Part shown: positions 16,870-45,943 of the stretch, piece by piece
How positions within the stretch are numbered: position 1 is the stretch's first letter
How the letters are laid out: each line of letters begins with the position of its first letter
Assembly (NCBI RefSeq): GCF_022045235.1
Contig: NW_027266319.1
Span: forward strand, 27,590,001-27,654,000
Length of the DNA stretch: 64,000 nucleotides
Direction of reading: 5' to 3'
Source: Haliotis cracherodii
Taxonomy: Eukaryota
Notes under the pieces: generated by a model
What the model was told of the DNA's origin: nothing
What the model saw: only the letters and a program-made list of their open reading frames with translations
Databases searched by the model: none
Translations under genes and position numbers: made by a program

Positions 16870-17352
16870 CATACTGGTGACATGTGACTCTCTACCGTAC
16901 CTTGGTGGCATGTGGATCTGTACCATACTGGTGGCATGTGGATCTGTACCATACTGGTGACATGTGGATCTGTACCATACTGGTGACATGTGGATCTGTA
17001 CCATACTGGTGGCATGTGGATCTGTACCATACTGGTGACATGTGGATCTGTACCATACTAGTGGCATGTGGATCTGTACCATACTGGTGACATGTGGATC
17101 TGTACGATACTGGTGGCATGTGGATCTGTACGATACAGGTGGCATGTGGATCTGTACCATACTGGTGACATGAGACTCTCTACCGTACCTTGGTGGCATG
17201 TGGATATGTACCATACTGGTGACATGTGGATCTGTACGATACTGGTGGCATGTGGATCTGTACCATACTGGTGACATGTGGATCTGTACCATACTGGTGA
17301 CATGTGACTCTCTACCGTACCTTGGTGGCATGTGGATCTGTACCATACTGGG
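16870..17352. repeat. 26-bp minisatellite array (~18 units), same family as 1-1455, in intron 1 of paralog B
   Basis: Same consensus unit. An array-specific 28-bp variant (…GACTCTCTACCGTACCTTGGTGG) occurs at ~16886, 17174 and 17306. Confidence 0.96.
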
Positions 17353-17850
17353 GACACAGTCGGATAGTGTAATGTTAGTGACCAAGTTAGGAGCTACCCC
17401 GTTGGGTTTAACGTCATTTTGAACAGTATGTTCACGATACATGAATATGACGACGTCTTAGCTTAATGTGGGAGAAAAGTTCGACGTGATGCAGATATTT
17501 GCCACTTTGGTGAAACCCAGGACCACGGGTGTGATGCTTACAGACCGCGGTTACATCTGGTAGGTTAACTAGTGACTGGGATCAATGAGTGTCCCATCTC
17601 CAAGTAGTGAATGGGTACCCGGTAGGATTAGGTGACATGTGATTGCTAGCATCCGACATACACTTGAGTTCTCTCCATGGAGATAAAAAATGTCAGTGCA
17701 CATGGATTAATGGTCATTAATTATGGTCCGACACTGACACACCCCTGGAACTCGACCTTGCAAGAGTTGACGCTTAATGACACTGCTTACTTTTATTATT
17801 ATCATGATTGTCATTTGTATCATTATATTTGTATAATTATTATTACCTAC

Positions 17851-18180
17851 CGATGGCATATACGACGCGCTTGCATGGTTCCAGCCAGAGGCAGACATCA
17901 TTCCAGAAGGAGCCGTTGTCGAGTTGTCGTAGTTGAGCTCGCATTGTCCCGCTTTGAAGTTCAAGCTGACGCAGCGAGACTGCTGCAAACATGACGTCAC
18001 ACAGTCCTGTAGGGTGAGGGTCTGAAGCACGAGGTAGACTGACCCCACGAGTCTACTGCCAGCCAGGAGCCCGGGGGTGTTAACCTCTCGACTGCATGTC
18101 CCCGTGACTTGACTCCCCGTGACCTGACCACACCCTGTCATCAGCTCCACAAGCAACATTGTTGTCAGAAAGGTTTTCAT
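17851..18180 (-). CDS. Exon 1 of secreted PAN-EGF-like-kringle protein, paralog B (gene model join 18180-17851, 13140-13056, 10748-10498; 221 aa)
   Basis: Signal-like MKTFLTTMLLVELMTGCG followed by a PAN domain. Phase-0 donor TCG|GTAGGT at 17850. The three exons sum to 666 nt with an open frame. Confidence 0.85.
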
Positions 18181-26329: not shown

Positions 26330-26790
26330 AGCAATATCTCTCAGTTGATTTTATGTCATCTTTTATTTTAAATAGAAAATATCTTACGTTAGTGATATTA
26401 TATCCAAAACATGAACTGTACTGGGTGTTAGTCAGCACTCAAAGAAAACTTCCACATGGATCTTTTTTTTAAAAATAAAATTTGATTCTTGATATTATTT
26501 GCATAATATACAACTGCTGATGGGTATCTTAGACATTTTATCTTTGAAAAATCAATATATTTGTTTTTGGGGGTACAGATTTACATTATTACAAACAGGG
26601 CAGGGATGTATCTTCATTTCTTACCCCAGTCTTCATTGAAGCAATATATCTGTATACAAAATTACCCTGCCACAGATTACTTTTTATAAACTGTTGCAGG
26701 AAAGAGTGATGATTAGGTTCATATAACAACCATTCTAAGTGGACATAATCAAATTTAACTACAGTTTTTTCAATTACATAAAATTCAAAA
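26330..26790 (+). repeat. Unclassified ~450-bp dispersed repeat, second copy at ~39700-40130
   Basis: Shared blocks AGTCAGCACTCAAAGAA, CTTACCCCAG.CTTCATTGAA and AAAATTACCCTGCCACAGATTAC in the same order. Confidence 0.75.
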
Positions 26791-27227
26791 TCGGTATACT
26801 ATCTGTTATAGACATGTTGAAAGTATGTATTATAGGTATTGACGTCTTACTTATACCCATGCATATGAAAGAAAACAATTGTTGTACAATAAGTATGACC
26901 GTAAAACCATATGTTGAATCAATATCAATCCGCGGTATCACGACGTTCAAAGAAATCATAATTAGAAATGAAGTATTTCACGACTGCTTCAAACGTTATT
27001 CGCGTGCATTTGTCATACTGCAGTTGTATCATATCACAATTAATCTGGAACCACACTTGTTCATATACATGATTATACCCTGAGAATATACTTAGTATAT
27101 ACTACAGCGTTGATGTGTTATTTAAAACAATTTTTATTTTAAAGTTAGCAATGGACTGACTAAGGCTATTTAGTCTATTTTTAGACGGTTTATACTTGAA
27201 TATTTTACAGGAGACCCTAACAATTAC

Positions 27228-27470
27228 CCCGTGAAGATCCGGGGTAGAATAGGTCTTCAGCAACCCGTGCTTGCCGTAAAAGGCACTACAAGTGATAGAG
27301 ATGACTAACGGGATCGGGTGGTCAGACTCGCTGACTTAGTTAATGAATGTCATCGTATCCCAGTTGATCGATACTCATTCACTGGATTGTCTGGTCCAGA
27401 CTCGATTATTTATATACCGCCGTCATACAGCTGGAATATTGCTGAGTGTGCATACAAACAAACGGACAGA
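27228..27470 (+). mobile_element. SINE-like repeat family C
   Basis: CCCGTGAAGATCCGGGGTAGAATAGGTCTTCAGCAACCC head plus family core. Confidence 0.87.
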
Positions 27471-28058
27471 CAAAAAAAGTATATATATTTATCAGTATGC
27501 TAGACAGACATCGACCCCTAGTGATCGCACTCGCTAATAACACAGGTTCCAGTCACGAAATATCATTTGACATTTTGACATATTTAATACTGATACTCAA
27601 ACACTACAAACTATAATAAGTAAAGGATTCATGATTATGCAAAATACGCCACGATGAAATATATCACTGTCTGTCCGAGGACGTGTTGGAGTTCCGTCAT
27701 TATTTGTGTTCATTACAGAAAACTAATATGTACAGACCTGTGAACAAATATTTACAGTAAACATTCCCCTTCCCACGTGGCGGCGATGGCATTACAGTGA
27801 TGGGAGCCGTACATTCTCTGATGCAATTCCAAATAATTCCAACTTACAACTCCACTCGTCATGTGACGTTGTTGTTAAAACATGCAGGCAAGTTCAATCA
27901 AAAGCATTACCGTGACCTTCCAGTGGATGCGATTTCAGCTAACTGTTGCATAACGCTTACTCAAGATGGGCCGCCCGTCGGTCCAGATGGCCTGCCCTGG
28001 TACCGCAACACGCTCACCCCTCCACGGGGGGTCAGGATGTTGGGGTCAGATTCTTGTG

Positions 28059-28100
28059 TATTTATAACTGGCTGACACTGATGGACAATCATATTCAGCT
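28059..28100 (+). promoter_or_regulatory. Putative TATA box + initiator of tropomyosin copy 1
   Basis: TATTTATAA at 28059-28067, then CATATTCAGCTT about 30 nt later. This parallels TATAAAA...CATATTCACTT upstream of copies 2 and 3. Confidence 0.45.
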
Positions 28101-28239
28101 TCTGCCTCCAACAGACAGGTCTATTGCAGCCTCAGTGATTTGTAGCATCGTTATCCTGTGTTGTTTGAGCGTTCTCGACAACTGTAAAACTTTTACTTAC
28201 TATCCCTAGTCTTAGGTTTTTAAAAACTTCCTAGTAGCC

Positions 28240-29094
28240 ATGGACGCCATCAAGAAGAAGATGCTCTCCATGAAGTCCGACAAGGACAACGCACTTGAAA
28301 AATCCGAGATGTTGGAACAGCAACTTAAAGACATTGAGGAACAGAAGGCTAAAGTTGAGGAGGACCTCCACGATCTCCAGAAGAAATTCTCCAATCTCGA
28401 GGTAGAATTTGACAACGTCAACGAGCAGCACCAGGAGGCAAATGCCAAGTTGGAGACATCTACCAAGAGAGTCACCGAGATGGAACAAGAGGTCAGTAGT
28501 ACGTCCTCCAGGGCTACCATGTTAGAGGAAGATCTGGAGAGGTGCGAGGAGAAACTGCAGACAGCCACTATCAAGCTGGAGGAGGCATCCAAGGCTCAGG
28601 ATGAGACGGAGAGGTCACGCAAAGTTCTGGAGAATAAGAGCAGTGCTGACGATGAGCGCATCGATCAGCTAGAAACTCAACTGAAGGACGCTAAGTATAT
28701 CGCCGAGGAAGCTGAAAGAAAGTATGACGAAACTGCCCGTAAGTTAGCCATGACAGATTCCGATCTGGAGCGAGCTGTCACCCGTTTTGAGGCTGCTGAA
28801 ACCAAATCCATTGAACTGGATGAAGAATTGAAGGTCGTTGGAAACAACATGAAGTCCCTTCAGATCAGCGAGCAGGAGGCTTGCCAAAGAGAGGAGACTT
28901 TCGAGGAGACCGTCAAAGACCTGACCCACAAGCTCAAGGAGTCGGAGCACCGCGCTGCGGAGGCTGAGAGGACAGTGTCCAAACTCCAGAAGGACATCGA
29001 CCGCCTGGACGATGAGCTACTTACAGAGAAGGAGAAGAACAAGGCCATCCATGACGAGTTGGACCAGACATTCGCCGAGCTCGCCGGATACTAA
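28240..29094 (+). CDS. Tropomyosin, intronless copy 1 (284 aa)
   Basis: Canonical 284-aa length, MDAIKKKM N-terminus, [22 protein letters not shown]-terminus, continuous heptad repeat, single uninterrupted ORF. Confidence 0.97.
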
Positions 29095-29485
29095 CTGTGA
29101 ATGTGTACTACAGACAGGAAACATACCAGTGTTCTTCAAATCTCCAGTGGATATTTTCTAATGCTGTGACATTGATCTATAAGACCCTGTGCTCAAAAGG
29201 TTAACACTTTTTGTCTACTTTGTGTGATGCTTGTAATTGTCATCTCATGAGTCAGTGATGCCAGTGAAGACTTACTCGGATACAATGGATACCACTGGAG
29301 GCCTGGTTGAACACTCAAGTTTATACTTGAAACTTTGAATCTCACATGAACAATATTAAGCTTTCTTTGATTTTAAATGTACCCAACCACTGCTGAATGT
29401 TGTATATAGCCAAAATTGTATCAACTCATTACAACTATTTATTATTTATACAGTAAGTCTACAGACATTCAACTGTTCATTTGTG

Positions 29486-29491
29486 AATAAA
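29486..29491 (+). terminator. Polyadenylation signal AATAAA of tropomyosin copy 1
   Basis: About 390 nt after the stop. Conserved at the equivalent position in copy 3 (41955-41960, minus strand). Flank homology ends shortly afterwards. Confidence 0.65.
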
Positions 29492-31914
29492 ACCTGGAAG
29501 TCCATAATACAAGTTGTTCATATTTTAAATACGACCTGCCACCCAGTGTGACACCATTACTGTTCACAGCACCTTGTACACACACGTGGCTTTTGTAGTT
29601 TCCAGGAAGTACTAACGGAAATCAATTTCTCGTCAGTGAGTGCATATTGTCTGCCCTTGTCAGCAACTTTACTGCAATATACTGGATGTTATCCCCATCA
29701 GGTGAACCAGCGTGTAAGTTATTTCTTGGTAGGTAAATAAATTATTCATTGTTATATTTTAATTGCTGTTTTAAGAAATCATGTCAATGTTGCTGTTGTT
29801 TCTATTACTTAACTATACTACTTTATATCTTTCCTGAATACAAGTTTTTTAAATCTTATCTAGAAACAAACTGGTCACTATTTTATAGGAACACAGTTTT
29901 TAAGGAACACTCTTGTGGTCTAGAAACTTCACTTTGTGTTGTGGTTTGAGTAATTTAAAAAACATATTTAATATTTGACTTCAAAAACCAGGAACCACAA
30001 CATAAAGTATGTCATAACAGGGCATATCTACAAACTATATCTGTCTGACAAGCACGTGTGGACACATGTACGTGACTTCAGAACACCCGATTGTGATCAC
30101 AGTGCATTAGTATTCCAATGATTATTATTGAGATTATAACTGGGATGTTTCAATGCAGTTTATAAGAAAAATGGGGGCATGGAAATCTAAGTATAATGAA
30201 CATATAATATTACAGAGCGTACTTCCTGTTATCAACGACTTCAATGAAGGGAACGCCCACATTCATCTTCCCAGCCTGTTCAAGGGCTCAGTAGAGCTTT
30301 CAAAATGTGTTATAGTGGACATGGTGGGCGTTTCCAAATTTAAGGCTTCAGTGACAAAATGAAAAGTCTGATGCAATTCCTTAATATTTTAAATTTTACC
30401 AGGCTCCCTTGTTTTGCAGGTCAACAATTTACTTGCCTTTGCATGTTTTTTTGACGGGTGCCACCTGTGCGGCAGAATACGCTTATCTTTTCGCGAACAC
30501 AGGGGAACATCACTATTTGATAGTCATACAAAAAACATTTTTATGATATTGTCGGAATCATACAATGCAGATTTTTTCTGATTATGGAAAGGGTTTTGTC
30601 GCTGTCATTGAACATGTGGGTATTTATGCATTTCATGGCGCGCACGGAATATGCCTCCCTGCCAACGCTTAGAGTACCCACCTTCAATAGAAACACACAT
30701 AGAATTGAAAAAAGAGTATTCTTGTGATATAAAGTTATGCATTAGGTTAAAGATATATATAATCCAAATGAAGCCCAGAAAAAATGCTTAATTTGAGGGC
30801 TGAGCTGAGGCAATCTAGACTTGCCAAATCATTCTAGGTTCGAGTTGGATTCAATTTGTTCTCTTATGTCTGTGAGACAGACTAGAAGACCTATGACAAA
30901 CATGTTATGCATCTGTGAGTTTGGGGCGACAACTACTTGGCAACAGAGGACAACTGGAAGACCCCTTACATCCCTTATACCTGGTAGCAATGACCCACTA
31001 TACAAACCAACGGTACCTCTATTTCCAGAGATAAGTCACAGCATCTTACGTTTATCGGTGATAAATCCAAATACCACGAACCATTTGCGGCAATCCAGGA
31101 GTCTGAACAATGCTAGCATTACTCTTGAATCACACATGTAGGTGCCTATGTATAATGACACTGTGTGAATATTCCTACACGTGTAACAGGACTGGTTATT
31201 AAAGTGATGGTCCTCTGTAATCTTTGCTGCAACTGTTTGTCTGTGTTACAAAATCCGTTTTTTTGTTGTTCCTTCCAGTCTTCGTTTGTTACATAAGGGG
31301 CCGGCAATTTGGTATTCTGTACGGAATCAGCTACAGCTGCAAAACCAGATATTTCAGCTGACACTTTGAGTCTATATATTTCTTTTGAACAAAAAAACTT
31401 GCAACAATGTATTTTGTCAAGCATTTTCTTGGCCAATAATTTCGTCGATAAAATCCCAGATCCCCTCCCCCAGAATATCAAATGACCGGTCCCTAAGTAA
31501 GTGGGGGTGGGGGCAGGGGGTAGTAGCGGGTGGAAAGGGTGGGGGTGATGGTTTATAACCAGCAAACCAGTAGTAGTGCAACCCACACACGTGCTCTGCA
31601 GGGAAGACTGAAGCTTCCACTTGTGTCGTGCTAAATCATGAAGGGACATGAGAAGTAGTCCAAGTGGGTTGTAAACCAGCCGACTTCACCTACTTTAAGA
31701 ATACTCTTGATATTGTGGTGTAAACTATGTGTCTTGCCAAGGATAGCCCAATGTTGTATATCGAATAAACATAAAACGTCAACGACAGAGAATAACACAT
31801 CTCCATTAACTGCCGACTCAGTTCTCCGAAAATCAGTGAGGACACCAGGTCAGCCCTTTATGTACTGATTATTTATCCATAATGACATCTAAGATAGGTG
31901 TCTGGGAATGTGAG

Positions 31915-32094
31915 TATGTGTGTGCGCGTGCGTGCGTGCGTGCGTGCGTGTGTGCGTGCGTGCGTGCGTGCGTGCGTGCGTGTGTAAATAACGCATCAGT
32001 TGCAGTTTGGAATTCGTTTATTTGACTGATATGTTCTATGTAATGAACACTGACACACCACACATACACACACACACACACACGCACGCACACG

Positions 32095-32135
<41 letters not shown>

Positions 32136-32379
32136 ACGTAAAAGGCAAAATAGCGGTGAAAAGTATAATTATGAATTATATGAAAATTATAAGTATATTA
32201 TATAATTAATTTCCTTTAGGATCAAAATTATACATAATTTGAATTGAAATATCAGCAAGCATAAACCATTATGTATATACACACAAACAAAATTTAATTA
32301 AAGAATAACATTTTAAATGTATGTAAGTGGATATGTTCGTTAGTAGGAAAGGGAATGATATCTCAGTGTGAAATATGCA

Positions 32380-32447
<68 letters not shown>
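31915..32447. repeat. Microsatellite cluster: (GCGT)n, (CA)n, (CA)n
   Basis: Directly visible at ~31915-31985, 32055-32137 and 32378-32447. Confidence 0.95.
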
Positions 32448-32449
<2 letters not shown>

Positions 32450-34379
32450 GTCTGATTATTGACATTTTGATGCGTCCCTTTCTTTTTGACCCCAATATGC
32501 ATTGACACGGCACCAAGCTAAGCCAAGATAATTATTTGGTACAATGTAGTCTGTCATGTAGATCATGAAATAAATATATCCATACATCTGTAAAACATAT
32601 CTCAAAATTGTCGAAATGAGTTTACACAAATATGTCTGTCACCAACATCATAACAAAGGTTACTCGTGAAGAGCAAATTCCGAACATGAAATGCCTAGAT
32701 ATATCTATACCATCCATCTTCACGAGAAGGCAATAACATTACTACGTGTACAAGAATATATCAAGTCTGTTGTAAACATGCATAAGATGTTAGCGGGGGC
32801 GGGGTGGGGTGTTGAATGGGTGGGCGGGGAAGTAGGAGGGAGAGGTTCGAGTGGGGGCTGAAGTAAGACGATAAGTGAAGAAGACCCTCTACCCCCTGGA
32901 ATTTTCAGCTGCAGGTGGTATGCACATGTGTTTGTGGGTGATGCATTAAGGTAATGAATTCTTTACGGTTCAAGAGAATCGAGGATTTTGCTTACTCGCG
33001 GTAATGATTATTGCAGCACCGATTGCATAAGATGAGTTAGCTTCTCCTTGTTAATGCCCACATCTGACCGCCGCGTGGGGTGTTGTACGACCGGCGTGCG
33101 GGGTGTTGTATGACCCGCCGTGTTTGCAGGGTGGTGCGCAGCATCAGTGTCAATCCACAATCATAAACTTCAGATTTATGTGTTGGTGATGGGCGTGTTA
33201 GTCGTGCATGGATACTGATTGGCAAAGAGATGCATGTGTTTATTGCCATTGGTTTAGGCAATCTAGATTCCTAAGAATGTTTAAAGAAATGTGCAGTCTT
33301 GCAGTCCCTGAACCATAATATTTACTGTAGTGCCACAGCCCCAAATGAAGCAAGCCTAGATATTTGTCCACAGGTTCAGATATCTCCCATCTCACTGGGG
33401 CTCCTTTTCAATTTGAATGTAGTTGGTTGTTTCTATCAAAATTATATTTTTTCAGTGACTAAGCGTTTGTCTATTCACATTATATCAACATGCATTTATC
33501 ATCTTTCTTCATCGAAATACGTTCTAGATCCGTAAAGATCTACCTCAATATATGTATATGCAATAACGTCATTTAGTACATCCGGATCCTACACGAGTAG
33601 TCATAAAAAAGACAGCAACGCCATCCAGATAACTAATAACGTTAACTTAGACAAATAAAATCGACAAAACCCTTTCCATATACATAAAATAATCTCTGCA
33701 AAAAGCAGAGTTGATTGTACGATTCCGACTATATCACGAGCATGCGTTATGAATCATCATCAAGCAGTGATGATACCACCCTTCCAAAGTAAAACACATG
33801 CTTAAACAACACAAATGGCAAGCCTGGTATTGAAAATACCCCTGTCAAATACACCACAGCAAAGGGCAACATCGTCACAAACGAAACATATGAAACAAAA
33901 TGGTTTATTTCAAAAATTATACTTCAGCACATCGGTCAGATCATTAAAAGTTGCTACGTACATGGTTGAAAGAGCGGTAGTGATGTTTCACATACAGTCA
34001 CGTTAGCTTTGACAATATATCAACACAAGTACTTCATGTATGGTGGCAGCATATGGAGAGTAGTCACTGACATCCCTCGGAGTCAGTAACGAGCACATAT
34101 TGTCCTGGTAGAAACGCCGCTCGGAGCATAGCCTTATGTCACCTGTTGACAAGCACTATTGTAAAGCACATTGTTAGTTCAACCATTTGGGGTTTATGTG
34201 TGTATAGTTGGCAAATGGAAATTGAAATAAATATAAGCATAAATTAACATAAATAAGTGACAAATTTCCTATTCACCGTTATGTCCAAATCTAGTATCCG
34301 ACGAGTACCAGTACAGAAAATATTCATTAGAGGTGTGTAGAACACTGACATCTTTCATGGATGGAATACACATTCACAG

Positions 34380-35234
34380 TTAGTATCCGGCGAGCTCGGC
34401 GAATGTCTGGTCCAACTCGTCATGGATGGCCTTGTTCTTCTCCTTCTCTGTAAGTAGCTCATCGTCCAGACGGTCGATGTCCTTCTGGAGTTTGGACACT
34501 GTCCTCTCAGCCTCCGCAGCGCGGTGCTCCGACTCCTTGAGCTTGTGGGTCAGGTCTTTGACGGTCTCCTCGAAAGTCTCCTCTCTTTGGCAAGCTTCCT
34601 GCTCGCTGATCTGAAGGGATTTCATATTGTTTCCAACGACCTTCAATTCTTCATCCAGTTCAATGGATTTGGTTTCAGCAGCCTCAAAACGGGTGACAGC
34701 TCGCTCCAGATCGGAATCTGTCATGGCTAACTTACGGGCAGTTTCGTCATACTTTCTTTCAGCTTCCTCGGCGATATACTTAGCGTCCTTCAGTTGAGTT
34801 TCTAGCTGATCGATGCGCTCATCGTCAGCACTGCTCTTATTCTCCAGAACTTTGCGTGACCTCTCCGTCTCATCCTGAGCCTTGGATGCCTCCTCCAGCT
34901 TGATAGTGGCTGTCTGCAGTTTCTCCTCGCACCTCTCCAGATCTTCCTCCAACATAGTAGCCCTGGAGGACGTACTACTGACCTCTTGTTCCATCTCGGT
35001 GACTCTCTTGGTAGACGTCTCCAACTTGGCATTTGCCTCCTGGTGCTGCTCGTTGACGTTGTCAAATTCTACCTCGAGATTGGAGAATTTCTTCTGGAGA
35101 TCGTGGAGGTCCTCCTCAACCTTAGCCTTCTGTTCCTCAATGTCTTTAAGTTGCTGTTCAAACATCTCGGATTTTTCAAGTGCATTGTCCTTGTCGGACT
35201 TCATGGAGAGCATCTTCTTCTTGATGGCGTCCAT
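34380..35234 (-). CDS. Tropomyosin, intronless copy 2 (284 aa)
   Basis: Intact ORF that differs from copy 1 by one amino acid (L25F). Confidence 0.97.
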
Positions 35235-35344
35235 GGTTACTTGGTTGGTGGTGAGTCGTAAAACTAAACGGAAAGTACTTTATACTACAAAGTTGTAGAG
35301 ATAATCTCAAGGAGCAGACTGTTGGTTGTTGACGGCGGAAGGCG

Positions 35345-35540
35345 AAAAGTGAATATGCCCTCTCGTTCAATATCGGTCTGTTTTATACCACTGACTTACC
35401 CCCATGTGGTATTATAGACAGGGGTGGTAACCGCCATCTTTGAAACGACCCCCTGCCACGGCGCCAGTGTACCTCTCCCTGTACCGGCGGGGGGTGCATC
35501 TGTTTGAGCATGTGCTCTGCCCGTGTACATCGTCTTATGT
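35345..35540 (-). promoter_or_regulatory. Putative promoter of tropomyosin copy 2 (TATAAAA 35381-35387, YY1-like AAGATGGCGG, E-box CAGATG)
   Basis: Block strongly conserved with 43348-43540 upstream of copy 3. Confidence 0.55.
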
Positions 35541-35544
35541 CAGA

Positions 35545-38170
35545 AGGTATTTTGATGTAAATAATTAAATACTCAAAACTTGGCCACATAATCCTTGGAG
35601 GGGATATCAGTGTCCTCTCAGTATCTGATGATGGATGCATAGATAATAGTAATATTATCCACTTGCCTGATTTTCCTACTGACATAGGGTCCATCATTCA
35701 AACACCAGTGGGCACTAAATAATTTGTTGAACACCAAATGACAGTGCTTCTTGTGAAGCACACATTGATGCCTTCTATGCCGGTATATTATCTCCATTAA
35801 TATAGTGTCAACAGAAGCAGACCTGTATATAAACTGCCTAAAACCCTTGGCATGATAAAGAGGTTTGAACATTATGAAATAAACTTTGGTTATCTAAAAA
35901 ATATAAAAGGTGCAGCCAGTACAAGGGATCTCTTAATCAGGATTTCTTAATCCAGAAAATAATGACCCCATTCAAAACTGTAATGCTATTTTAACTCCTC
36001 AATCAATGCTGAAAGGGTCGTGGAATGTGTTTGATAATTAAAAACAAATAAATCTAATTACAGAGGCATAGCTGCACGCAGTTGTATGGGAAGTTATTAG
36101 TTAGATTATTAATGGAAGAAATGCCAAACACATGGACAATAACTGTATGCATGACATTTCACAGTCTGGATTTAGAAAATGATATCGAGATCTCTGATAT
36201 CAGATTTGTACTCGGAACCCCAATTGTCTCAGCAAAATCGCTATGTTTTGTTAATTTAGAAAAGGCATTTGACACAATAGATAGATCACGTTTGCCTTCT
36301 AAACTTTTATCAGTTGGTGTTTCCAGGAAGGCAATTCATATTAAATATTCGCTTCATGCTGATATTTCATATAGAGTAAATACCAGTAAGGGAGTGTCAC
36401 AAACATTCCTATCTGATATTGGATGAGACAGGGATGTATCTTGTTTCCCACTCTTTTCAACATATTAATACACGATCTTCAGCAACACCTTAATTCTAAG
36501 CAAAATAGTGTAACTCTACATGATCTCAACATTGTCACTGCTTGCGGGTGAGTTTCTATTATTCGTAGACAGCCCACCCAATCTTGATACTCTTCGGGGG
36601 CACGGGTGGCTCAGTCGTCTAAGGCGCCGCGATTCGCTGTGCAGAGTTGAGGCCCTTGGGCATGCCAGAAACCTATGGTTGTGGGTTCGAATCCCGGTTC
36701 GCCCCGATTATGTTTCTAGGTTTGTCAGCACCATACCCGTGCTCGTGTGTTTCACCGAAGTAGTAAACGTCTGAGACCTGCATCACTTCGGCCTTTCCTC
36801 CCACATTAAGCTGACACGCCGTGATCTAACTGGAATACTGTTAAAAGCGGCGTTAAACCCAACTCACTCACTCAATCACTCACTCACTCTCAAAATAGTC
36901 ACTGCTTACGGGTGATTTTCTATTATTCGTAGACAGCCCACCCAATCTTGATACTCCTCGTGTCTTCTGCATTAATAAAAAATAAATGGAGATAAATATA
37001 AAGTTATTATAATTTGCATATTCAGTAATTTGAATGCAAAATATTAACGGTAAAACATTGTGTGATACAAATCATTATAATTATTTTGGAATAATGTTTG
37101 ATCTATCTGAAAGGTTCATCTGGAAAACGCTACATTATTGTTTAAAGAAGGATTGGGAGCATACCACGAACTCCAAACTACCATTTTCAATCAAGATATT
37201 CCAGTACATCAAGCATAAAAACTATTCAAATCATTAACAGAACCTATCATTTAATACCATTTGGGACATTAGTTCAATTCTATGAAACAGATTAACCTAT
37301 ATACTCGTGAAAAACTTAAACTTCTATTCTGCAAATTCAGTGTTTGGGGCCAGTAGAACTACACATAACTGGTCATGCAGAGCAGGGTAAGGTTAATATC
37401 CTCTTCTATATAGTACAATAGCTAAAATGGTAAATTTAACACCTCAAACAATATCATTCTCCGAAACGCTTTTGCTAAGAGTAAATCCCGAATCCTTAGA
37501 AGAATTGTTTATTTGCTGATGGACAAACGCTAAATTAAACACTCAGCATCAACGTCATTATCTGTAGTTGATACCATCCAACAGAAATTCCAAACCCTTA
37601 ATATACATTCTCTTTCAGATGCAGAATCTATGGCTACTGGCGCAGGAGAAAAATAAGAACATGTAGAATAGTAAAAAATGATATTAAGTTAAGACCTCTT
37701 TAAGAATATCTCAAGAAAATATCGTGTTAAGTTGATACTTAGTGACCATTAACTTAAAAGTGAGCTTGGTACACGCACAGCACCGCCTACACCAATCCAT
37801 CAAAGACTCAACTGCTCAAGTGCACATCAGTAGTAGATGATCTAATTCACTGTATAAAACATAGCCAAGATTGAATAGTATTATATAATATTATTAGCTA
37901 ACGAAGTTTCCAAAATAATATACTTACATGAAGATGGCCTGTTCCAACATGCCCTCAATCAATACAATTTGTTAACATGTTTATAATTTCAACCAATAAA
38001 TCCTAATACATCAACATAACCATCTGTAAAATATTTTGTTTTATTCTTGTGTTTTATAAACGCATATTTCATGAGTTTGTGTAAATGTAAATTGTAGCTG
38101 TTTACATTTGCATCTTTTATTTAAGAAATGTATTGCAATATAAATTACCTTATCGTAATTTATCTGAAGA
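35545..38170 (+). mobile_element. ~2.6-kb insertion containing a decayed non-LTR retrotransposon (RT fragment) and a nested SINE
   Basis: RT motifs CFVNLEKAFDTIDR and *RQGCILFPTLFNI at ~36240-36470. Absent from the homologous upstream region of copy 3, which joins the flanks directly (43530-43570). Confidence 0.75.
36596..36888 (+). mobile_element. SINE family A with a 73-bp flanking direct repeat
   Basis: Full-length element. Flanks 36524-36596 and 36888-36960 differ at 5 of 73 positions. Confidence 0.92.
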
Positions 38171-38838
38171 CGGAACTTTCTTACGGAGAAAGTATACATC
38201 AAACGTTGCGCCATTAATGGAGATTATCATAGAGCTATTAAGTAATTACCATCTCATCTTGTGAACATGCGAAGATAAGGTAGCATCTTGCGACATCTGG
38301 GTTACATGACTGTGCACTTTCACCTTCATGGTGGGGGGTGGGAGTGGGGGTGGGTCGTTGGGGAAGGGTTTGCGTGCACCCCCGTGTTTCACACTGAAAC
38401 GGGAGAAGCTTGCAATGTTAACACGTTTCATATGCATATATTCATCAGTAATCAGTTTAGGTTTTTGTATTCGTGGGGTTGTACATGTTTGAAGTACAAT
38501 AGATCTTCTTCCAACATTACAAAGAGCGCCATACAACTCTTGCTCAGAAGTTGTTTGATCAAGGTTACAACTATCATGGCCTCAGTAAACTAGATTTATG
38601 TCAGACATGTGGAGGACATTTCCATGCAATTCCCTATTTTGACTTGTACCATATGCTCCCGGTTGTTTTTAGGTGAACAATTGACTTGTCTTTGCATGTG
38701 TTTGTGGCGGGTGCCAATGTTGGGCAGCATGCGCTCACCTTTTCCCGAACACCTGGTATCATCATATTTGATAGCGATTCATAAACACATGCTAATGATA
38801 CAGTCGGAGTCATATAATCGAATATTTCTTATGACTAC

Positions 38839-39018
38839 GGTTCGCCCGATTATGTTTCTAGGTTTGTCAGCACCATACCCGTGCTCGTGGGTTTCACCGA
38901 AGTGGTAAACGTCTGAGACCTGCATCACTTCGGGCTTTCCTCGGACATTAAGCTGACACGCCGCCATATAACTGGAATACTGTTAAAAGCGGCGTTAAAC
39001 CCAACTCACTCACTCACT
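38839..39018 (+). mobile_element. SINE family A, 5'-truncated
   Basis: 3' half of family A; TSD TCTTATGACTA.GG. Confidence 0.9.
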
Positions 39019-39289
39019 CTTATGACTATGGAAAAGGTTTTGTCTGTTCTGTTTTATTACTTTGCCTGTGGAATGTGATGTTGATGCATCTGGTATACAA
39101 CTTCCAATCAGAATGTGATTCCTTCTAATTGAATGAATCTTTAATTCCCAGACATTCAGAAATAATGTATGTGATTAACAGCTCACACTATTCCTTTTAC
39201 ACGACTATGCCATCTTCCTGGACAGCGGGTCGGTGGAAATCTGAAACTATTACTGATGATGGAATATAGAGCTGATAGTAAAGGATTGA

Positions 39290-41130
39290 AGTCTGACAAA
39301 GCACCCGATATAGATGCTGTTCCTCATGATTTTTATGAAAATACCATGGACATGTAACCGTATTTAACCATATATTTGATCTTGGTGAATTTCCAGAAGA
39401 TGTTGATCCCGCTGTAAAACGAGGTGATGTTGAAAACGTCAACAATTATATTGTACTTTTACTATTAAATAATTTTGGTAAAATTTTCACATCAATTCTG
39501 GAACTTAGACAAAGAACTTTAGTTGAAGTCAACGATACGGTGGCTTAGGAAATAATTACTCTACAACTGATCAAAGTTTCGTTCTCTTTGTTAGAAATCT
39601 CTTAGAAAACCAAACCATATGTTCTAACATTGTATTATTGATTATAAAATAAACGTTGCATCATATGACAGAAATAAGTTATAACTGAGAAGAAAAGGAA
39701 ACTATACCTCACAGTTGATTTGATCATATGTTTGATTTTCATTTTAAAATATCTTAAGTTAGCGAAACATATAGTCAGCACTCAAAGAATATTTCTACAT
39801 GGTTTCATTTATTAAAATAAATTTTCTAAAAAAAAACTTTTTAAAATAGCAAAAATTTGCATTATACACAATGGCTAATATGTACCTTACCCGTTATATC
39901 TGTGACAATTCATAAATTTGCTGCTTGGGGAACAAATTTACAACATTTCAGACAGGGTGGGGTTCATGTGGTTGCAAATTAATAATTATTTCTTACCCCA
40001 GACTTCATTGAACCAGTTAATGTTTACACAAAATTACCCTGCCACAGATTACAATGTACAAACTGTTGCTGGGTGATGGTTAATCGTCTGCAACAATTCT
40101 TTCAATTTTCTATTACATAAAAAACAAAAGAGGTTACATCTTTACGCCTCAGTTTACGTCCTAGTCGACAGGGGCATTCATGGGATAATGTTTATTATAC
40201 TTTAGAATATGTATGAAATTAACAAAACCTGTGCGAGGGTGGGACATGTGAAAACATAAATTTAAAAAACCAACACAGGTGTTATACAAGGTTGCATGTT
40301 TAGTCCAGTTCATTATATTTTTTTGTTATGAAGGGACATGGATTAAGGGGTAATTTTGTAAAAAAAACCAACAACATTTATTTATTTTTGTTGATGATGT
40401 AACTCTTGTTGATGATAGTATAACTGGACGACATAATAAAATAGATGTTTCAGAATCGTATTGCCAACCATTGGGACTAGAGGTTTAATTTCGACCAAAA
40501 TAGTAGTTTTAGAAATAGTGGTTACTTAAAAATTATGTAGCAACGGTTTAATAAAGGTTCTCAAGTTAAAGTAGCACCATGCTCTAAATATCTTGGCATA
40601 TTATTTTCTTGAAGACCTGTCTGGACTAAACCTTGTGATACTCTATCTCTTCAAGCAAGGAAAGCATCTATCCCAGCCTTCATCAGGTTGAAACATACTC
40701 TCTACCAATATAACTGCTGCTAAAATATTTGAAGCAATGCTGCTCCTGTTATTTTTGCTATGTTTCAGAAATCTGGGTATACAACTAGAGAAGAAATATT
40801 GAAAAGGTTCACCTCAAGTCCTTTAAAAGGTATATTTCTGTTGCAAAAAGAAGCTCCACAAATGCTATTTGGGTGAACTTGGAAGAACTCCCTTATGTGT
40901 AAATTATTATAGTCGTTCTGTTACATATCGGTGTAGATTCAGTGAAAATAGATATCCTGGAAGCTTTTGACGACAATGGTAAAACAAATAAGATTACCAT
41001 TATTTCAACTGGGTTTTCATGTGTATACATTTCTCAAAACTGTGGCGATTTAAATTGTATCAATGCTTTTTTTTAACAACGATAAAACGATTTCAAAACT
41101 GTCATTAATTGTTACAAATTCGTCTCTTGC
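39290..41130 (+). mobile_element. Heavily decayed LINE ORF2 (RT) remnant, interrupted by a dispersed repeat at ~39700-40130
   Basis: Fragments FNHIFDLGEFPE, LLNNFGKIFTSIL, TGVIQGCMFSP, FFVDDVTLV and KYLGI in RT order, with many stops and frameshifts. Confidence 0.75.
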
Positions 41131-41522
41131 ATGTATATTCGTCTCATAAAACGCCACTCGTACCATAGAGACCTGTCTATTTAGCCCCGGAAAGAGATCT
41201 CCGAACAACTTCATGTTGATTTGTCCATTTAAGAAACAAAGAGAGAAAGCAGAGAAATTATATGAATGAATCACTGTCAATCAGTGTTGACACCAGGTGT
41301 TCATTGAAAGGGTAAGCATGGCCTGTCCTACCAGTAGCGCCCGTCATGTCTTTGTACTCATGGGTGCTGTTAACCGTTAGAATCCAGTGGTGGTATAACT
41401 GTTGCTACTGGTAGGGCAGGACATGCTTACCATTTCCGCGGACACCTGGTGTCATCACCTATTTTCAGTGATCCATTCATATAGTTTTTACCGCTATTTT
41501 TCCTTTTACACTCAATGGAATC

Positions 41523-41830
41523 GACCGCCTCCGTGGTCTAGTGGTAGAGCGTCCGCCCGGAGAGCGGAAGGTCCGGGGTTCGATCCCCGACTGCGTCATA
41601 CCAAAAGACGTTAAAAGATTGTACTTATTGTTACCCTGTCTGGCGCTCGGCATTAAGGGGCTAAAGCAAGGACTGGTCGGCTCGGAGTCAGTATACTGTG
41701 TCTGAGTTATGCTAGCTGCATAAATCGGCATCAGTCCGGACTAGTACAAGCAGCCACACATACACGTCGCTATATAAGTGCAATAATCTTGGACGCGACG
41801 TTAAACCCAATTTCACCTCACCTCACCTCA
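41523..41830 (+). mobile_element. tRNA-derived SINE family D, full length
   Basis: A box TGGTCTAGTGG, B box GGTTCGATCCC, central GTCATACCAAAAGACGTTAAAAGAT.GTACT...GGCGCTCGGCATTAAGGG, (CACCT)n tail, TSD CTCAAT.GAATC. Confidence 0.92.
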
Positions 41831-41954
41831 ATAGAATCTGTTTCGTCGGCTAATCGAGACTGGTTATTCTCTGGTGTTGACGTTGTATATTTATACACCT
41901 GAGTGCCAGGTGGAATGCCAAATTATGAACAACTTGGTTTATGGACGTGCAGGT

Positions 41955-41960
41955 TTTATT
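41955..41960 (-). terminator. Polyadenylation signal AATAAA of tropomyosin copy 3
   Basis: Positional homolog of 29486-29491. Confidence 0.65.
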
Positions 41961-42351
41961 CACAAATGAACAAACGCATGTCTATTGACACACTGAATAA
42001 ATAATAAATAGTTGTAATGAGTTGATACAATTTTGGCTATTTACAACATTCAGCAGTGGATGGGTACATTTAAAATCAAAGAAAGCTTTATATTGTTCAT
42101 GTGAGATTCAAAGTTTCAAGTATAAACTTGAGTGTTCAACCAGGCCTCCAGTGGTATCCATTGTATCCGAGCAAGTAATCACTGGCATCACTGACTCATG
42201 AGATGACAATTACAAGCATCACACAAAGTAGACAAAAAGTGTTAACCTTTTGAGCACAGGGTCTTATAGATCAATGTCACAGCATTAGAAAATATCCACT
42301 GGAGATTTGAAGAACACTGGCATGTTTCCTGTCTGTAGTACACATTCACAG

Positions 42352-43206
42352 TTAGTATCCGGCGAGCTCGGCAAATGTCTGGTCCAACTCGTCATGGATG
42401 GCCTTGTTCTTCTCCTTCTCTGTAAGTAGCTCATCGTCCAGGCGGTCGATGTCCTTCTGGTGTTTGGACACTGTCATCTCGGCCTCCGCTGCGCGGTGCT
42501 CCGACTCCTTGAGCCTTTGAGTCAAGTCTGCGATGGTCTCCTCAAACGTCCCTTCTCTCTGGCAAGCCTCCTGCTCGCTGATCTGAAGGGACTTCATGTT
42601 GTTTCCAACGACCTTCAATTCTTCATCCAGTTCAATGGTTTTGGTTTCAGCAGCCTCAAAACGGGTGACAGCTCGCTCCAAATCGGAATCTGTCAGGGCT
42701 AACTTACGGGCAGTTTCGTCGTACTTACTTTCAGCTTCCTCGGCGATATGTTGAGCATCCTTCAGTTGATTTTCTAGCTGATCAATGCGCTCATCGTCAG
42801 CAATGTTCTTGTTTTCCAGAACTTTGCGTGACCTCTCCGTCTCATCCTGAGCCTTGGATGCCTCATCCAGCTTGATAGTGGCTGTCTGCAGTTTCTCCTC
42901 GCACCTCTCCAGATCTTCCTCCAATGTGGTAGCCCTGGAGGACGTACTACTGACCTCTTGTTCCATCTCGGTGACTTTCTTGGTCGACGTCTCCAACTTG
43001 GCATTGACCTCCTGGTGCTGCTCGTTAACGTTGTCAAATTCTACCTCGAGGTTGGAAAATTTCTTCTGGAGAGCATGGAGGTCCTCCTCAACCTTAGCCT
43101 TCTGTTCCTCGATGTCTCTAAGTTGCTGTTCCAACATCTCGGCATTTTCAAGCGCGCTGTCCTTGTCGGACTTCATGGAGAGCATCTGCTTCTTGATGGC
43201 GTCCAT
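42352..43206 (-). CDS. Tropomyosin, intronless copy 3 (284 aa, ~91% aa identical to copy 1)
   Basis: Intact ORF with 25 aa differences from copy 1 by manual alignment. Confidence 0.96.
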
Positions 43207-43347
43207 GGCTAGTTTGAAGGTGTTGTGGCGTAAAATGAAACGGAGAGTAGTTTAGATTACAAAGTTGTAGAGATAATCTTAACAACCGAGCGACGTATTG
43301 CTTATTCAGGTCAGAACTGAGAGCGGACTGTTGGTTGTTGACGGCGG

Positions 43348-43540
43348 AAAGTGAATATGGCCTCTCGTTTATATCGGTCTGTTTTATACTACAGACTGAA
43401 CCGCATGTGGTATTACAGACAGAGATGGTCAGCGCCATCTTTGAAACGACCCCCTGCCACTGCGCCAGTGTACCTCTCCCTGTACCGGCGGGGGGTGCAT
43501 CTGTTAGACCATGTGCTCTACCCGAGTACATCGTCTTCTT
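43348..43540 (-). promoter_or_regulatory. Putative promoter of tropomyosin copy 3 (TATAAAA 43382-43388)
   Basis: Conserved with 35345-35540. Confidence 0.55.
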
Positions 43541-44393
43541 ATATCATTACATGGATATTTCTTACGGAGAAAGTATACATCAAACGTTGCACCATTAATG
43601 GAGAATATCACAGCGCTATTAAGTAATTATCATCTCCACCTGTGTACATACGAGGATTGGGTAGCACCCATGCGACATCTGGATTACGGAGCGGCTGTTG
43701 GGTCCCCGGGGCGGGTTGGGTCCCCGTGGTTCACACTGAAACGGGAGATGTCTGTAATAGTATATGTTTTCTTTTTCATATATTCAGTAGGTTTCTGTTT
43801 TCGTAGGTTTTGTGCATGTTGTATGTGAAGGTGTATCTTTGTTGTTTGTTGTTTAACGCCGCACTCAGAAATATTCAAGCTATATGACGGCGGTTTATAA
43901 ATAATCGAGTCTGGACCAGACATCCCAGTGAGTGTGATCACGAGCATCGATCTACGCAATTGGAGTTGGTGTATGTGGTGTACCACTTCCATGCTTCTAA
44001 TCCAGTAAATCTTCTTTAATTCCCACTCATTCAGAAAAATACATTTGATTCACAACTGAGAATATTCCTTTTACACGACTATATATCTTTAAGACTGCCC
44101 CCTTGGTCTGGGGGATAGAGCCTCTGACGTCTGGCCGGATAAAGGAAGGTCACTGGAGACTTTTAACCCCAGTTCACCTCACCTCACCTATACGTTCAGA
44201 AAAGAAAAGCACTTCAAAGTCGAAAACAAACAAAATATACAAGCAAACTCGAAAAGTAAAAACTGACATCTGTTTTATAGAACAAAAAACATATATTTAA
44301 CTTAAATTTATTCTATTTATACTATGTTATACACCACAGTATAATCATTTCAGCATGAAAAACCCAGTTTTTTTCTTTGCCGTAGATTTAGAA

Positions 44394-44558
44394 AGTGAGT
44401 GAGTATGGTTTCACGCCGCTTTTAGCAACATCCCGGCAATATCACGGCGGGGGACACCAGAAATGGGCTTCACACATTGTACCAATGTCGGGAATCAAAC
44501 CCCTGTCTTCGTCATGACGAGAGCGAACGCTTTAACCACTAGGCTACCCGACCGACCC
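44394..44558 (-). mobile_element. tRNA-derived SINE family B
   Basis: Family match; TSD AGATTTAGA. Confidence 0.9.
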
Positions 44559-45040
44559 AGATTTAGACAGAATCAACTGTTTTAAACGTTACATAAACAT
44601 GTTAAGTTTATTTATTTTTATTTTTCATTGACATGGCCAATCCTTTAATGAATCATTTACAAAACATATATTTTAGAACAAATGCATAATTTTGACATAA
44701 CTTTACAAGGTAGTTCTATCTTAGTAGTAAGGAAAAGAAATAACTTCGAGGAAATTGAAACAAAATGCATTTCTTAATTAAATGAAATTCCTTTTCTTTT
44801 ATCGCGTGTTGACGTCATATAAAGTGCTGGGTAGAAGAAAGTACACACCCCTGTTTGATGGTGGCTAAAAATAAAACAAACAAGACATTGTTAATCGAGG
44901 TTGATGAATTTGATACGGGTATCATAGTTGTGTTTATGGACCTTCCGTTTGCAGTGTTTCGGGCTACTGTTTTCAGCCTAGTAACTTCTTTCAGTGGCAT
45001 TTAGAACTTGGTGTGAAGTGAATATCACAAGAAGGATTTA

Positions 45041-45560
45041 TAAGCCCATTAACAGGAATGTAGTCATAAGATCGATACGGATAGTTTCCAAGTTTGAAGG
45101 TCACATAATTATGAAAGTACGCTTGATTTATATTTTGGTATGCAATGTTTGTAATTAGTTGTAAACAAACATTATGGTGTTGTGATACTCTGTGTGGGAT
45201 AACTTAATCATGTGAAATTGAAATCAAACCTGAGATTCATAAGCTCATTCACGGGAATGTAGTCATAAGATCGATACGGATAGTTTCCAAGTTTGAAAGT
45301 CTTTTTCACGCATAATTATGAAAGTACACTTGATATATATTTTGGTATGCAATGTTTGTAATTAGTTGTAAACAAACATTATGGTGTTGTAAACCTCTGT
45401 TATACATGGCTTATGTAATACTCTGTGTAGGATAACTTAATCATGAAATCGTGAAATTGATATCAAAACTGAGATTCATAAGCTCATTCACAGGAATGTA
45501 GACATAAGATCGATACGGACTGTTTCTAAATTTCTTTTTCACGCACAATTAAGAAAGCGC
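45041..45560. repeat. Imperfect tandem repeat, ~200-240-bp unit x ~2.3
   Basis: TAAGC.CATT.AC.GGAATGTAG.CATAAGATCGATACGGA at 45041, 45240 and 45479. Confidence 0.9.
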
Positions 45561-45943
45561 ACCAATATCATTAAAATCAGACCTTAGTTCTCGCTCCCGC
45601 TAAACAAAGCTTTGTTTAGCGGGACTAAGAGAACTAAGATCAGATTTGAATGAGCTTGGAAAGCGCTCTTGGTTGAAATTCTGGCATAGACGTTTTGCTT
45701 TTGTTACAAATATTTCTTCTATATTCGAGTATTACTAAGACTCGTAGAAGAATGCTGGTGGTGGTTAGATTAATAAATATAATGTTTACACCATTTTGTA
45801 GTGCTACAGCATATAGGAATGCATGAATTATAGAAAAAAAATTCAAGATGATGAAACGACAGTGTATAAAGAAATAGGTTGAACGTATACCGGGTTAAAC
45901 AATGTTCGTGTTCATATGTTCGAAAACGATCTCTATGACATAA

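Follow-up and report, generated by a model that had tools for sequence, protein, structure and literature searches.

How can three neighboring copies of one gene pair off differently at the promoter, in the coding sequence (CDS), and in the 3' untranslated region (UTR)? This question is raised by a cluster of tropomyosin copies in the abalone Haliotis cracherodii, found in the 64,000-nucleotide window that we analyzed (assembly GCF_022045235.1, contig NW_027266319.1, positions 27,590,001 to 27,654,000; coordinates below count from the first letter of the window). The locus consists of three intact open reading frames (ORFs) for proteins of 284 residues, each 284 codons long and uninterrupted by introns: c1 at 28240–29094 on the forward strand (+), and c2 at 34380–35234 and c3 at 42352–43206 on the reverse strand (−). 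The ORF strands agree with a previous reading of these letters without database searches (the sequence-only reading), which described c1 as inverted relative to c2 and c3 and proposed that repeated conversion between inverted paralogs had reshuffled promoter, protein, and 3'UTR independently. Copies c1 and c2 lie tail to tail with 5,285 nucleotides from stop to stop, and c2 and c3 are direct repeats 7,117 nucleotides apart. The three-way mosaic is real, and we consider it highly probable that gene conversion in some form contributed to it.

The Pfam Tropomyosin family (PF00261) was matched at 254 bits by c1 (254.4), 255 bits by c2, and 231 bits by c3, and its gathering cut-off of 38.6 bits was exceeded in 4/4 proteins tested (231–255 bits). 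Residues 1–280 of c1 aligned to alpha-tropomyosin structures in the PDB (E 9e-62), and family match and length place all three copies in the long 284-residue form of tropomyosin. A tblastn search across the whole window found no fourth copy or remnant. The window contains 298 N letters in two runs, both outside the locus and none within 28,000–44,500. GC content at third codon positions was flat across the copies (0.65–0.66), and there was therefore no sign of GC-biased conversion. The exact c1 and c2 protein sequences were absent from a collection of 15 billion proteins in which c3 was present, possibly through an annotation gap or a haplotype difference. No c1/c2 orthologue appeared among the best 120 of 288 and the best 120 of 361 protein matches, a blank that says little because those matches included no named full-length 284-residue mollusc tropomyosin.

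We split the informative sites of a three-way alignment, from −200 upstream of the start codon to +65 downstream of the stop, into those uniting c1 and c2 (12|3), c1 and c3 (13|2), or c2 and c3 (23|1). Counts of the three patterns were 6/7/62 in the 5' flank, 53/8/4 from −10 to +13, and 0/13/1 from +14 to +65, giving a region-by-pattern chi-square of 154, and for none of the three pairs did any of 10,000 permutations reach the best-fragment score of a Sawyer-type test. Different regions thus pair different copies beyond chance, as the sequence-only reading had it: c1 with c2 in the CDS, c1 with c3 in the 3'UTR, and c2 with c3 in the promoter. The excess identity is also sharp-edged, with 12/878 differences between c1 and c2, and 8/464 between c1 and c3 against 53/746 and 20/97 on the two sides of that stretch.

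The c1/c2 tract spans the whole CDS. The two coding sequences differed at 10 nucleotides and one residue (L25F), and c3 differed from c1 at 54 nucleotides and 25 residues and from c2 at 58 nucleotides and 26 residues, matching the single-residue and 25-residue distances reported before. From −10 to +13, the arms of this inverted repeat (c1 28230–29107, +; c2 34367–35244, −) differed at 12/878 nucleotides, which is 98.6% identity with a longest exact run of 323 nucleotides and a dS of 0.054. Near the start codon, 30 letters (−2 to +28 of the CDS) were common to c1 and c2 and not c3. Inversion mediated by inverted repeats requires near-identical inverted arms around a segment, and the two arms here enclose a 5.3-kb spacer (29095–34379); the flank divergence described below makes the spacer a candidate inverted segment.

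The c1/c3 tract covers the 3' end. From CDS nucleotide 747 to UTR position +355 (28986–29449 in c1, +; 41997–42460 in c3, −), the two copies differed at 8/464 nucleotides, versus 53/746 before and 20/97 after, and on the side of codons 1–249 their longest exact run was 79 nucleotides. A max-chi-square scan, which allows for the choice of breakpoint, placed the c1/c3 break at nucleotide 746, with the score reached by 40/10,000 permutations. The near-identity of the c1 and c3 3'UTRs seen earlier was therefore borne out (7/355 nucleotides, 2.0%), with c2 parting from both after +13, but the shared block begins inside the CDS, at nucleotide 747, and not at the stop. UTR divergence was below the dN of the same pair (0.046) and far below its third-position divergence over the preceding codons (29/249; Fisher P = 9e-7), and the block ended sharply at +355 (7/355 vs 20/109, P = 1e-8). 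Confined to third positions of the CDS, the c1/c3 break was not significant, as the max-chi-square was reached by 5,342/10,000 permutations. The C-terminal 35 residues were identical in c1, c2, c3, and the Haliotis rufescens protein introduced below, and were conserved across outgroups. We rejected the end of the tract at L249H as a signal of selection because, by definition, a tract edge sits at the last difference.

Relative to c3, the pieces fell into three tiers of divergence, the youngest being the 2.0% of the c1/c3 UTR (the c1/c2 dS of 0.054 is also low). In the promoter, the claim that c2 and c3 are close and c1 only faintly related held. The c2 proximal promoter and 5'UTR (35245–35536, −; TATA-like box at −153) differed at 31/284 aligned nucleotides from that of c3 (43217–43537, −; TATA-like box at −182 by motif scan), and the corresponding c1 region (28050–28229, +) differed from c3 at 50/163 with 15 gaps. 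By shuffling, this old c1 similarity was real against c3 (0/300 as high) and marginal against c2 (10/300). Promoter blocks of c2 and c3 were 79–89% identical, and two distal upstream blocks of c2 were 17–21% diverged from their c3 partners: 38146–38489 (−; partner 43527–43820), with 60/291 differences, and 39080–39208 (−; partner 43965–44082), with 20/115, neither having another match in the window. The closeness of the proximal promoters is as expected of a constrained core promoter, with older conversion there as an alternative. The ~2.6 kb upstream of c2 that separate the proximal block from the first distal block (35537–38145) are absent at c3 and hold a high-copy repeat (36596–36881) bracketed by a 73-nucleotide direct repeat (36524–36596 and 36888–36960; 93%).

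Downstream, c1/c3 homology persisted at ~80% to +452. The c1 side of this distal block (29450–29546, +) carries AATAAA at +392 and differed at 20/97 nucleotides, including 9/47 downstream of the signal, and on the c3 side (41899–41996, −) homology stops at a dispersed repeat (41894 and below). The c2 3'UTR was identical through +13 and then differed from c3 at 13/52 nucleotides over +14 to +65 (34315–34366, −); beyond +65, where c2 has its own AATAAA at +471, no homology was detectable (209/300 and 200/300 shuffles scored as high). The middle tier thus comprises the two c2 distal blocks (60/291 and 20/115), the c1 distal 3' block (20/97, with 9/47 past AATAAA), and codons 1–249, with a dS of 0.20 for c1/c3 and 0.22 for c2/c3. 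Divergence of the c1 distal 3' block equaled that of the c2 5' blocks (Fisher P = 1.0, on local-alignment counts). The old tier holds the c1 promoter (50/163 plus gaps) and the c2 UTR (13/52, then nothing). We discarded further apparent colinearity between c1 and c3 on the 3' side (31765–31825/41894–41833 and 32138–32187/41509–41461) as dispersed repeats that also occur at ~20.2–20.4 and 46.3–46.4 kb, and a far c1/c3 upstream match (score 131) and the pair 26321–26736/39691–40100 as repeats by their copy count in the window and high depth. A palindromic element resembling a miniature inverted-repeat transposable element (41250–41894) lies at the end of the c3-to-c1 3' homology, with a second repeat nested within it (41514–41831) and relatives near 20.2–20.4 kb and 46.3–46.6 kb.

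We compared the assembled edges over 26500–44500 with contigs from four public DNA runs among 21 listed: X1, X4, and X5 from organism A and X8 from organism B. X1 is possibly the source sample of the assembly, X4 belongs to the study that produced X1, and X5 to a different one. Repeats flooded the tables, which held eight pieces per run and 40 variant rows, and they dominated the depth per bin, which does not measure copy number and was not used; the evidence lies in contig ends. The X4 contigs carrying the c1 and c2 promoters ended at 28267 and 35207, both CDS nucleotide 28 and the end of the 30-mer common to c1 and c2 and not c3. Contigs of the c1 3' flank in X1 and X5 started at 29078, and an X5 CDS contig ended at 29107, the +13 position at which the UTRs of c1 and c2 diverge. 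The X8 c2-promoter contig ended 110 nucleotides from site 35316, which on its distance-to-end values would be the same node, and these values point to the same node for the c2 UTR in X4. A contig graph built from 31-letter words would branch in this way if two promoters enter one CDS and two UTRs leave it. A blended consensus is thus unlikely, and the consensus of collapsed copies that, by the sequence-only reading's own account, would refute it is disfavored by branch points that match the tract edges.

The same runs bear on the age of the c1/c3 tract and may hint at continuing exchange. Contigs on the c1 UTR carried c3-type letters at 6/6 listed sites in X1, 4/6 in X4, 5/6 in X5, and 0/2 covered sites in X8; polymorphism common to both paralogs would look like this, and so would two near-identical UTRs collapsed during contig building. 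Differences from the window numbered 53/6684 in X4 (7/8 listed pieces) and 56/2625 in X5 (6/8 pieces) for organism A, and 120/2881 in X8 (7/8 listed pieces, one repeat piece omitted) for organism B; the X4 and X5 counts come mostly from unique flanks, with UTR and CDS pieces omitted, and the listed pieces are the longest and hence biased. The c1/c3 UTR tract therefore appears young, because its 2.0% is near the differences of organism A runs and below those of organism B. A second c1/c3 tract at CDS 569–647, where three consecutive sites follow 13|2, was marginal (1,050/20,000 permutations) and was not retained. Position 28878 (c1 CDS nucleotide 639) is G in c1 and c3 and A in c2, and the organism B contig has A at full depth; the site may belong to a short additional tract transferred from c3 to c1 at CDS 569–647.

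Ectopic conversion is well supported for the c1/c2 CDS and for the c1/c3 CDS end and 3'UTR. Both tracts involve the inverted c1, and the direct-repeat pair c2/c3 has no young tract of its own. In these two regions the idea of conversion between inverted paralogs stands; for the promoter pairing it is not needed, because c2 and c3 are direct repeats whose distal blocks are 17–21% diverged, about the dS of 0.20–0.22, and their match needs only tandem duplication. Independent reshuffling of promoter, protein, and 3'UTR modules likewise exceeds what the data need, as one flank swap and two tracts give the pattern. The mosaic is confirmed, and the mechanism proposed for it is supported in part.

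The ancestral tropomyosin gene of the cluster was probably retroposed. Bilaterian tropomyosin genes are multi-exon and have diversified by exon duplication (PMC3342872). The three uninterrupted ORFs are intron-free in this normally intron-bearing family, and no A-run was visible downstream of the c1 poly(A) signal. Homology among the copies runs beyond AATAAA at one end and beyond the TATA box at the other, and the copies therefore appear to have arisen from each other at the DNA level.

The reading that we put forward, and to which we give an even chance, is that the tandem twin of c3 was split by an inversion that crossed over inside the c1/c2 coding regions. In this history, an intron-less and probably retroposed gene would have duplicated into an inverted tail-to-tail pair, whose old flanks would persist in the promoter of c1 and the 3'UTR of c2 (25–31% diverged and short). 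One member would then have been tandemly duplicated to give c3 and its twin, at ~20% neutral divergence today. Conversion may have kept the facing CDSs nearly identical, with the sequence of the twin winning (c1/c2 dS 0.05, both ~0.2 from c3). A crossover in the 878-nucleotide inverted arms would next have flipped the 5.3-kb spacer, placing the twin's promoter at c2 and its 3' flank at c1, and a younger 464-nucleotide conversion tract would have equalized the last 35 codons and 3'UTR of c1 and c3. We infer the inversion because the 5' half of the twin is at c2 and the 3' half at c1, both ~20% from c3, and because the old halves are complementary. The tracts, their edges, the tiers of divergence, and the asymmetric residue changes are observed; the order and direction of events, the inversion, the retroposition, and any part played by selection are reconstruction. 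Region-wise discordance can, on these comparisons, come from one inversion and not several independent conversions.

Several points tell against the inversion. Short-read contigs support the tract edges in several runs, yet they break at the shared CDS and cannot link promoter to UTR, so the promoter–UTR phase of each copy is limited to this assembly. For the UTR, the old and middle tiers overlap, at 13/52 and 20/109 (Fisher P = 0.40). Counted at third positions, the coding end of the c1/c3 tract falls short of significance (1/35 vs 29/249, P = 0.15), and no c1/c3 homology was found past +452. The poly(A) signal lies within the c1 distal 3' block, which selection or an older, longer tract could have preserved. 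Conversion with loss of the c2 UTR also needs the same number of events. Under that history, c1 would be the oldest copy and c2 and c3 tandem twins, c2 would have been stripped of its UTR past +65, whether through deletion or through replacement, the c1/c2 CDSs would have been homogenized and the c1/c3 3' ends repeatedly so, and the 80% block would reflect an older long tract or selection. It fits the tract statistics equally and is not hurt by UTR tiers that are statistically indistinct, and the hsp70 genes of Stratiomys offer a precedent, with reported 3'UTR conversion tracts of 300 bp or more and the deletion, ~47 bp past a stop, of most of one 3'UTR (PMC3071340). It must explain separately why the divergence of the c1 distal 3' block, including its 9/47, equals that of the c2 distal promoter, and we hold it to be possible but doubtful. 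If c2 had instead lost its UTR to an insertion, a displaced remnant of c3-type UTR would be expected, and none was found within the window.

The remaining explanations are less probable. An assembly error at the c1/c2 inverted repeat would leave the copies and tracts real, with the 5.3-kb spacer flipped by the assembler or the consensus blended; in the true genome, c2 would then match c3 on both sides as an intact tandem twin, and the third pairing would be an artefact. Arms 98.6% identical over 878 nucleotides with a 323-nucleotide exact run invite such an error, the flank pattern equals that of a mis-join, short contigs cannot phase across the arms, and the c1 and c2 proteins, unlike c3, are missing from the protein collection. 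The window lies, however, on a 70.4-Mb sequence, a scale at which we take long reads, which easily span 0.9 kb, to be usual, no N falls inside 28,000–44,500, and contig branching in three runs (X1, X4, X5) coincides with the assembled edges, which argues against a blended consensus (X1 is maybe not independent); such an error seems to us distinctly unlikely. Least credible, and very improbable in our judgment, is a history with no exchange at all, in which a single tree with uneven rates would combine a recent CDS-only c1/c2 duplication, strong purifying selection on the shared 3'UTR, and replacement of the c1 promoter and c2 UTR. The shared and conserved C-terminal 35 residues and the lack of a significant CDS-only break at third positions suit it. 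The UTR (2.0%) would nevertheless have to be more constrained than amino acid sites (dN 0.046), although the runs vary at six of its positions; its near-identity breaks off sharply at +355 (P = 1e-8); and the c1 promoter would have to be weakly homologous to that of c3 by descent even though c1 is recent. A bolder extension of the inversion is that the c1–c2 spacer is still active, with breakpoints inside two intact CDSs, so that each flip would re-pair two promoters with two 3'UTRs and leave the protein unchanged, while selection would keep conversion out of the derived c3 isoform (with changes such as R160S, R244M, and L249H at sites conserved elsewhere) as far as the last codon that distinguishes it. 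Such a regulatory switch segregating in abalone is unlikely.

The c3 protein was identical to P0001, and its sole cluster mate was the H. rufescens tropomyosin-like protein XP_046359425.2 (P0121), which differed from c3 at 6 residues (278/284 identical) and from c1 at 27. The c3 CDS therefore appears to have escaped conversion since before the split from H. rufescens, and outside the tract c3 groups with this orthologue. Sixteen of the 25 residue differences between c1 and c3 could be polarized; the change fell on c3 in 14 and on c1/c2 in 2 (binomial P = 0.004), and 13/14 of the c3-derived changes were common to H. rufescens. Polarization used 13 outgroup proteins that are redundant (six are Mytilus isoforms) and mostly span only residues 82–284; about half of the polarized changes lie on well-conserved columns (134, 152, 153, 160, 219, 244, and 249), and for several others the polarity is weakly supported. 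Two changes, A67V and L249H, occupy d positions of the heptad in the register that we take to start with M1 as a. With a dN/dS of 0.23, c3 is under purifying selection, but relaxed or redirected, and its first 249 codons encode a distinct, faster-changing protein. These codons may have been kept diverged by selection or by divergence that ended conversion, and the two are equally plausible.

Elsewhere in the window, ORFs at 1669–2040 (−) and 17707–18180 (−) scored 24.7 and 25.4 bits against PAN_1 (cut-off 21.4). Each adjoins an array of the same 26-nucleotide unit (1–1458, 56 copies; 16870–17356, 18.5 copies), and the two regions appear to be a duplicated gene segment ~16 kb apart and ~90% identical. 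Other tandem arrays lie at 5446–5974 (136 nucleotides × 3.9, 97%) and 12353–12694 (170 nucleotides × 2, 97%), with a looser array of a ~200-nucleotide unit at 45013–45659. At least three families of very high-copy short interspersed repeats (e.g., 27229–27494, 36596–36881, 43842–43963, and 44394–44557) reached a summed contig depth of up to 10^6 and were present in organism B too.

The locus is a compact example of sequence exchange between inverted paralogs in a mollusc. We found no description of this abalone tropomyosin cluster in a literature search of listings and the opening lines of abstracts, mostly outside subscription journals; earlier mention of intron-less mollusc tropomyosins is possible, and a 2010 paper by Irimia et al. 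on tropomyosin paralogy may cover intron-less lophotrochozoan copies. The cluster adds apparently undescribed abalone tropomyosins, one of them asymmetrically diverged, which matters for the diversity of muscle isoforms. It matters for inventories of isoforms too, because tropomyosins are the principal family of shellfish allergens. Should the inversion prove polymorphic, promoter and 3'UTR effects could be tested directly at this locus with the protein unchanged.

Mosaic conversion among clustered inverted and tandem paralogs is already established, and the abalone cluster is a further case. The hsp70 clusters of Stratiomys singularior combine an inverted pair with tandem copies, tracts in the 3'UTR that reach 300 bp or more, and gene trees that conflict between CDS and UTR (PMC3071340). 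Dipteran hsp70 and the abalone locus share a tight inverted and tandem cluster, homogenized CDSs, UTR tracts between particular copies, and rearrangement, but nearly all hsp70 CDSs are homogenized and alleles were sampled there, while here c3 is distinct and one assembled haplotype supplies the phase. The tail-to-tail Dlxa/Dlxb pair of Capitella teleta carries a 150-bp mosaic conversion tract, and the same paper names Hsp70, amylase, trypsin, and Y palindromes as inverted-pair precedents (PMC3199776). Capitella offers lophotrochozoan paralogs in the same tail-to-tail arrangement with a mosaic tract, though in two otherwise divergent genes, with no third copy and no flank swap. Divergence can also be held against conversion, as in exon 5 of the red and green opsins (reviewed in PMC3924837). 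There, as in c3, one paralog retains derived residues amid homogenized neighboring sequence, but c3 has no narrow peak and is diverged over 249 codons (dS 0.2, dN/dS 0.23), and passive escape is therefore as plausible as selection. A parallel to the proposed inversion is the flip/flop region of Saccharomyces chromosome XIV, where homogenized inverted gene repeats drive recurrent inversion (PMC9731477). In both, inverted-repeat genes are homogenized, and they form in yeast, and would form in the abalone, a substrate for inverting the segment between them. The yeast arms are 4 kb around a 24-kb segment found in both orientations in many strains, while the abalone arms are 0.88 kb around 5.3 kb and the inversion is our reconstruction; breakpoints inside the CDS would, in the abalone, re-pair promoters with UTRs.

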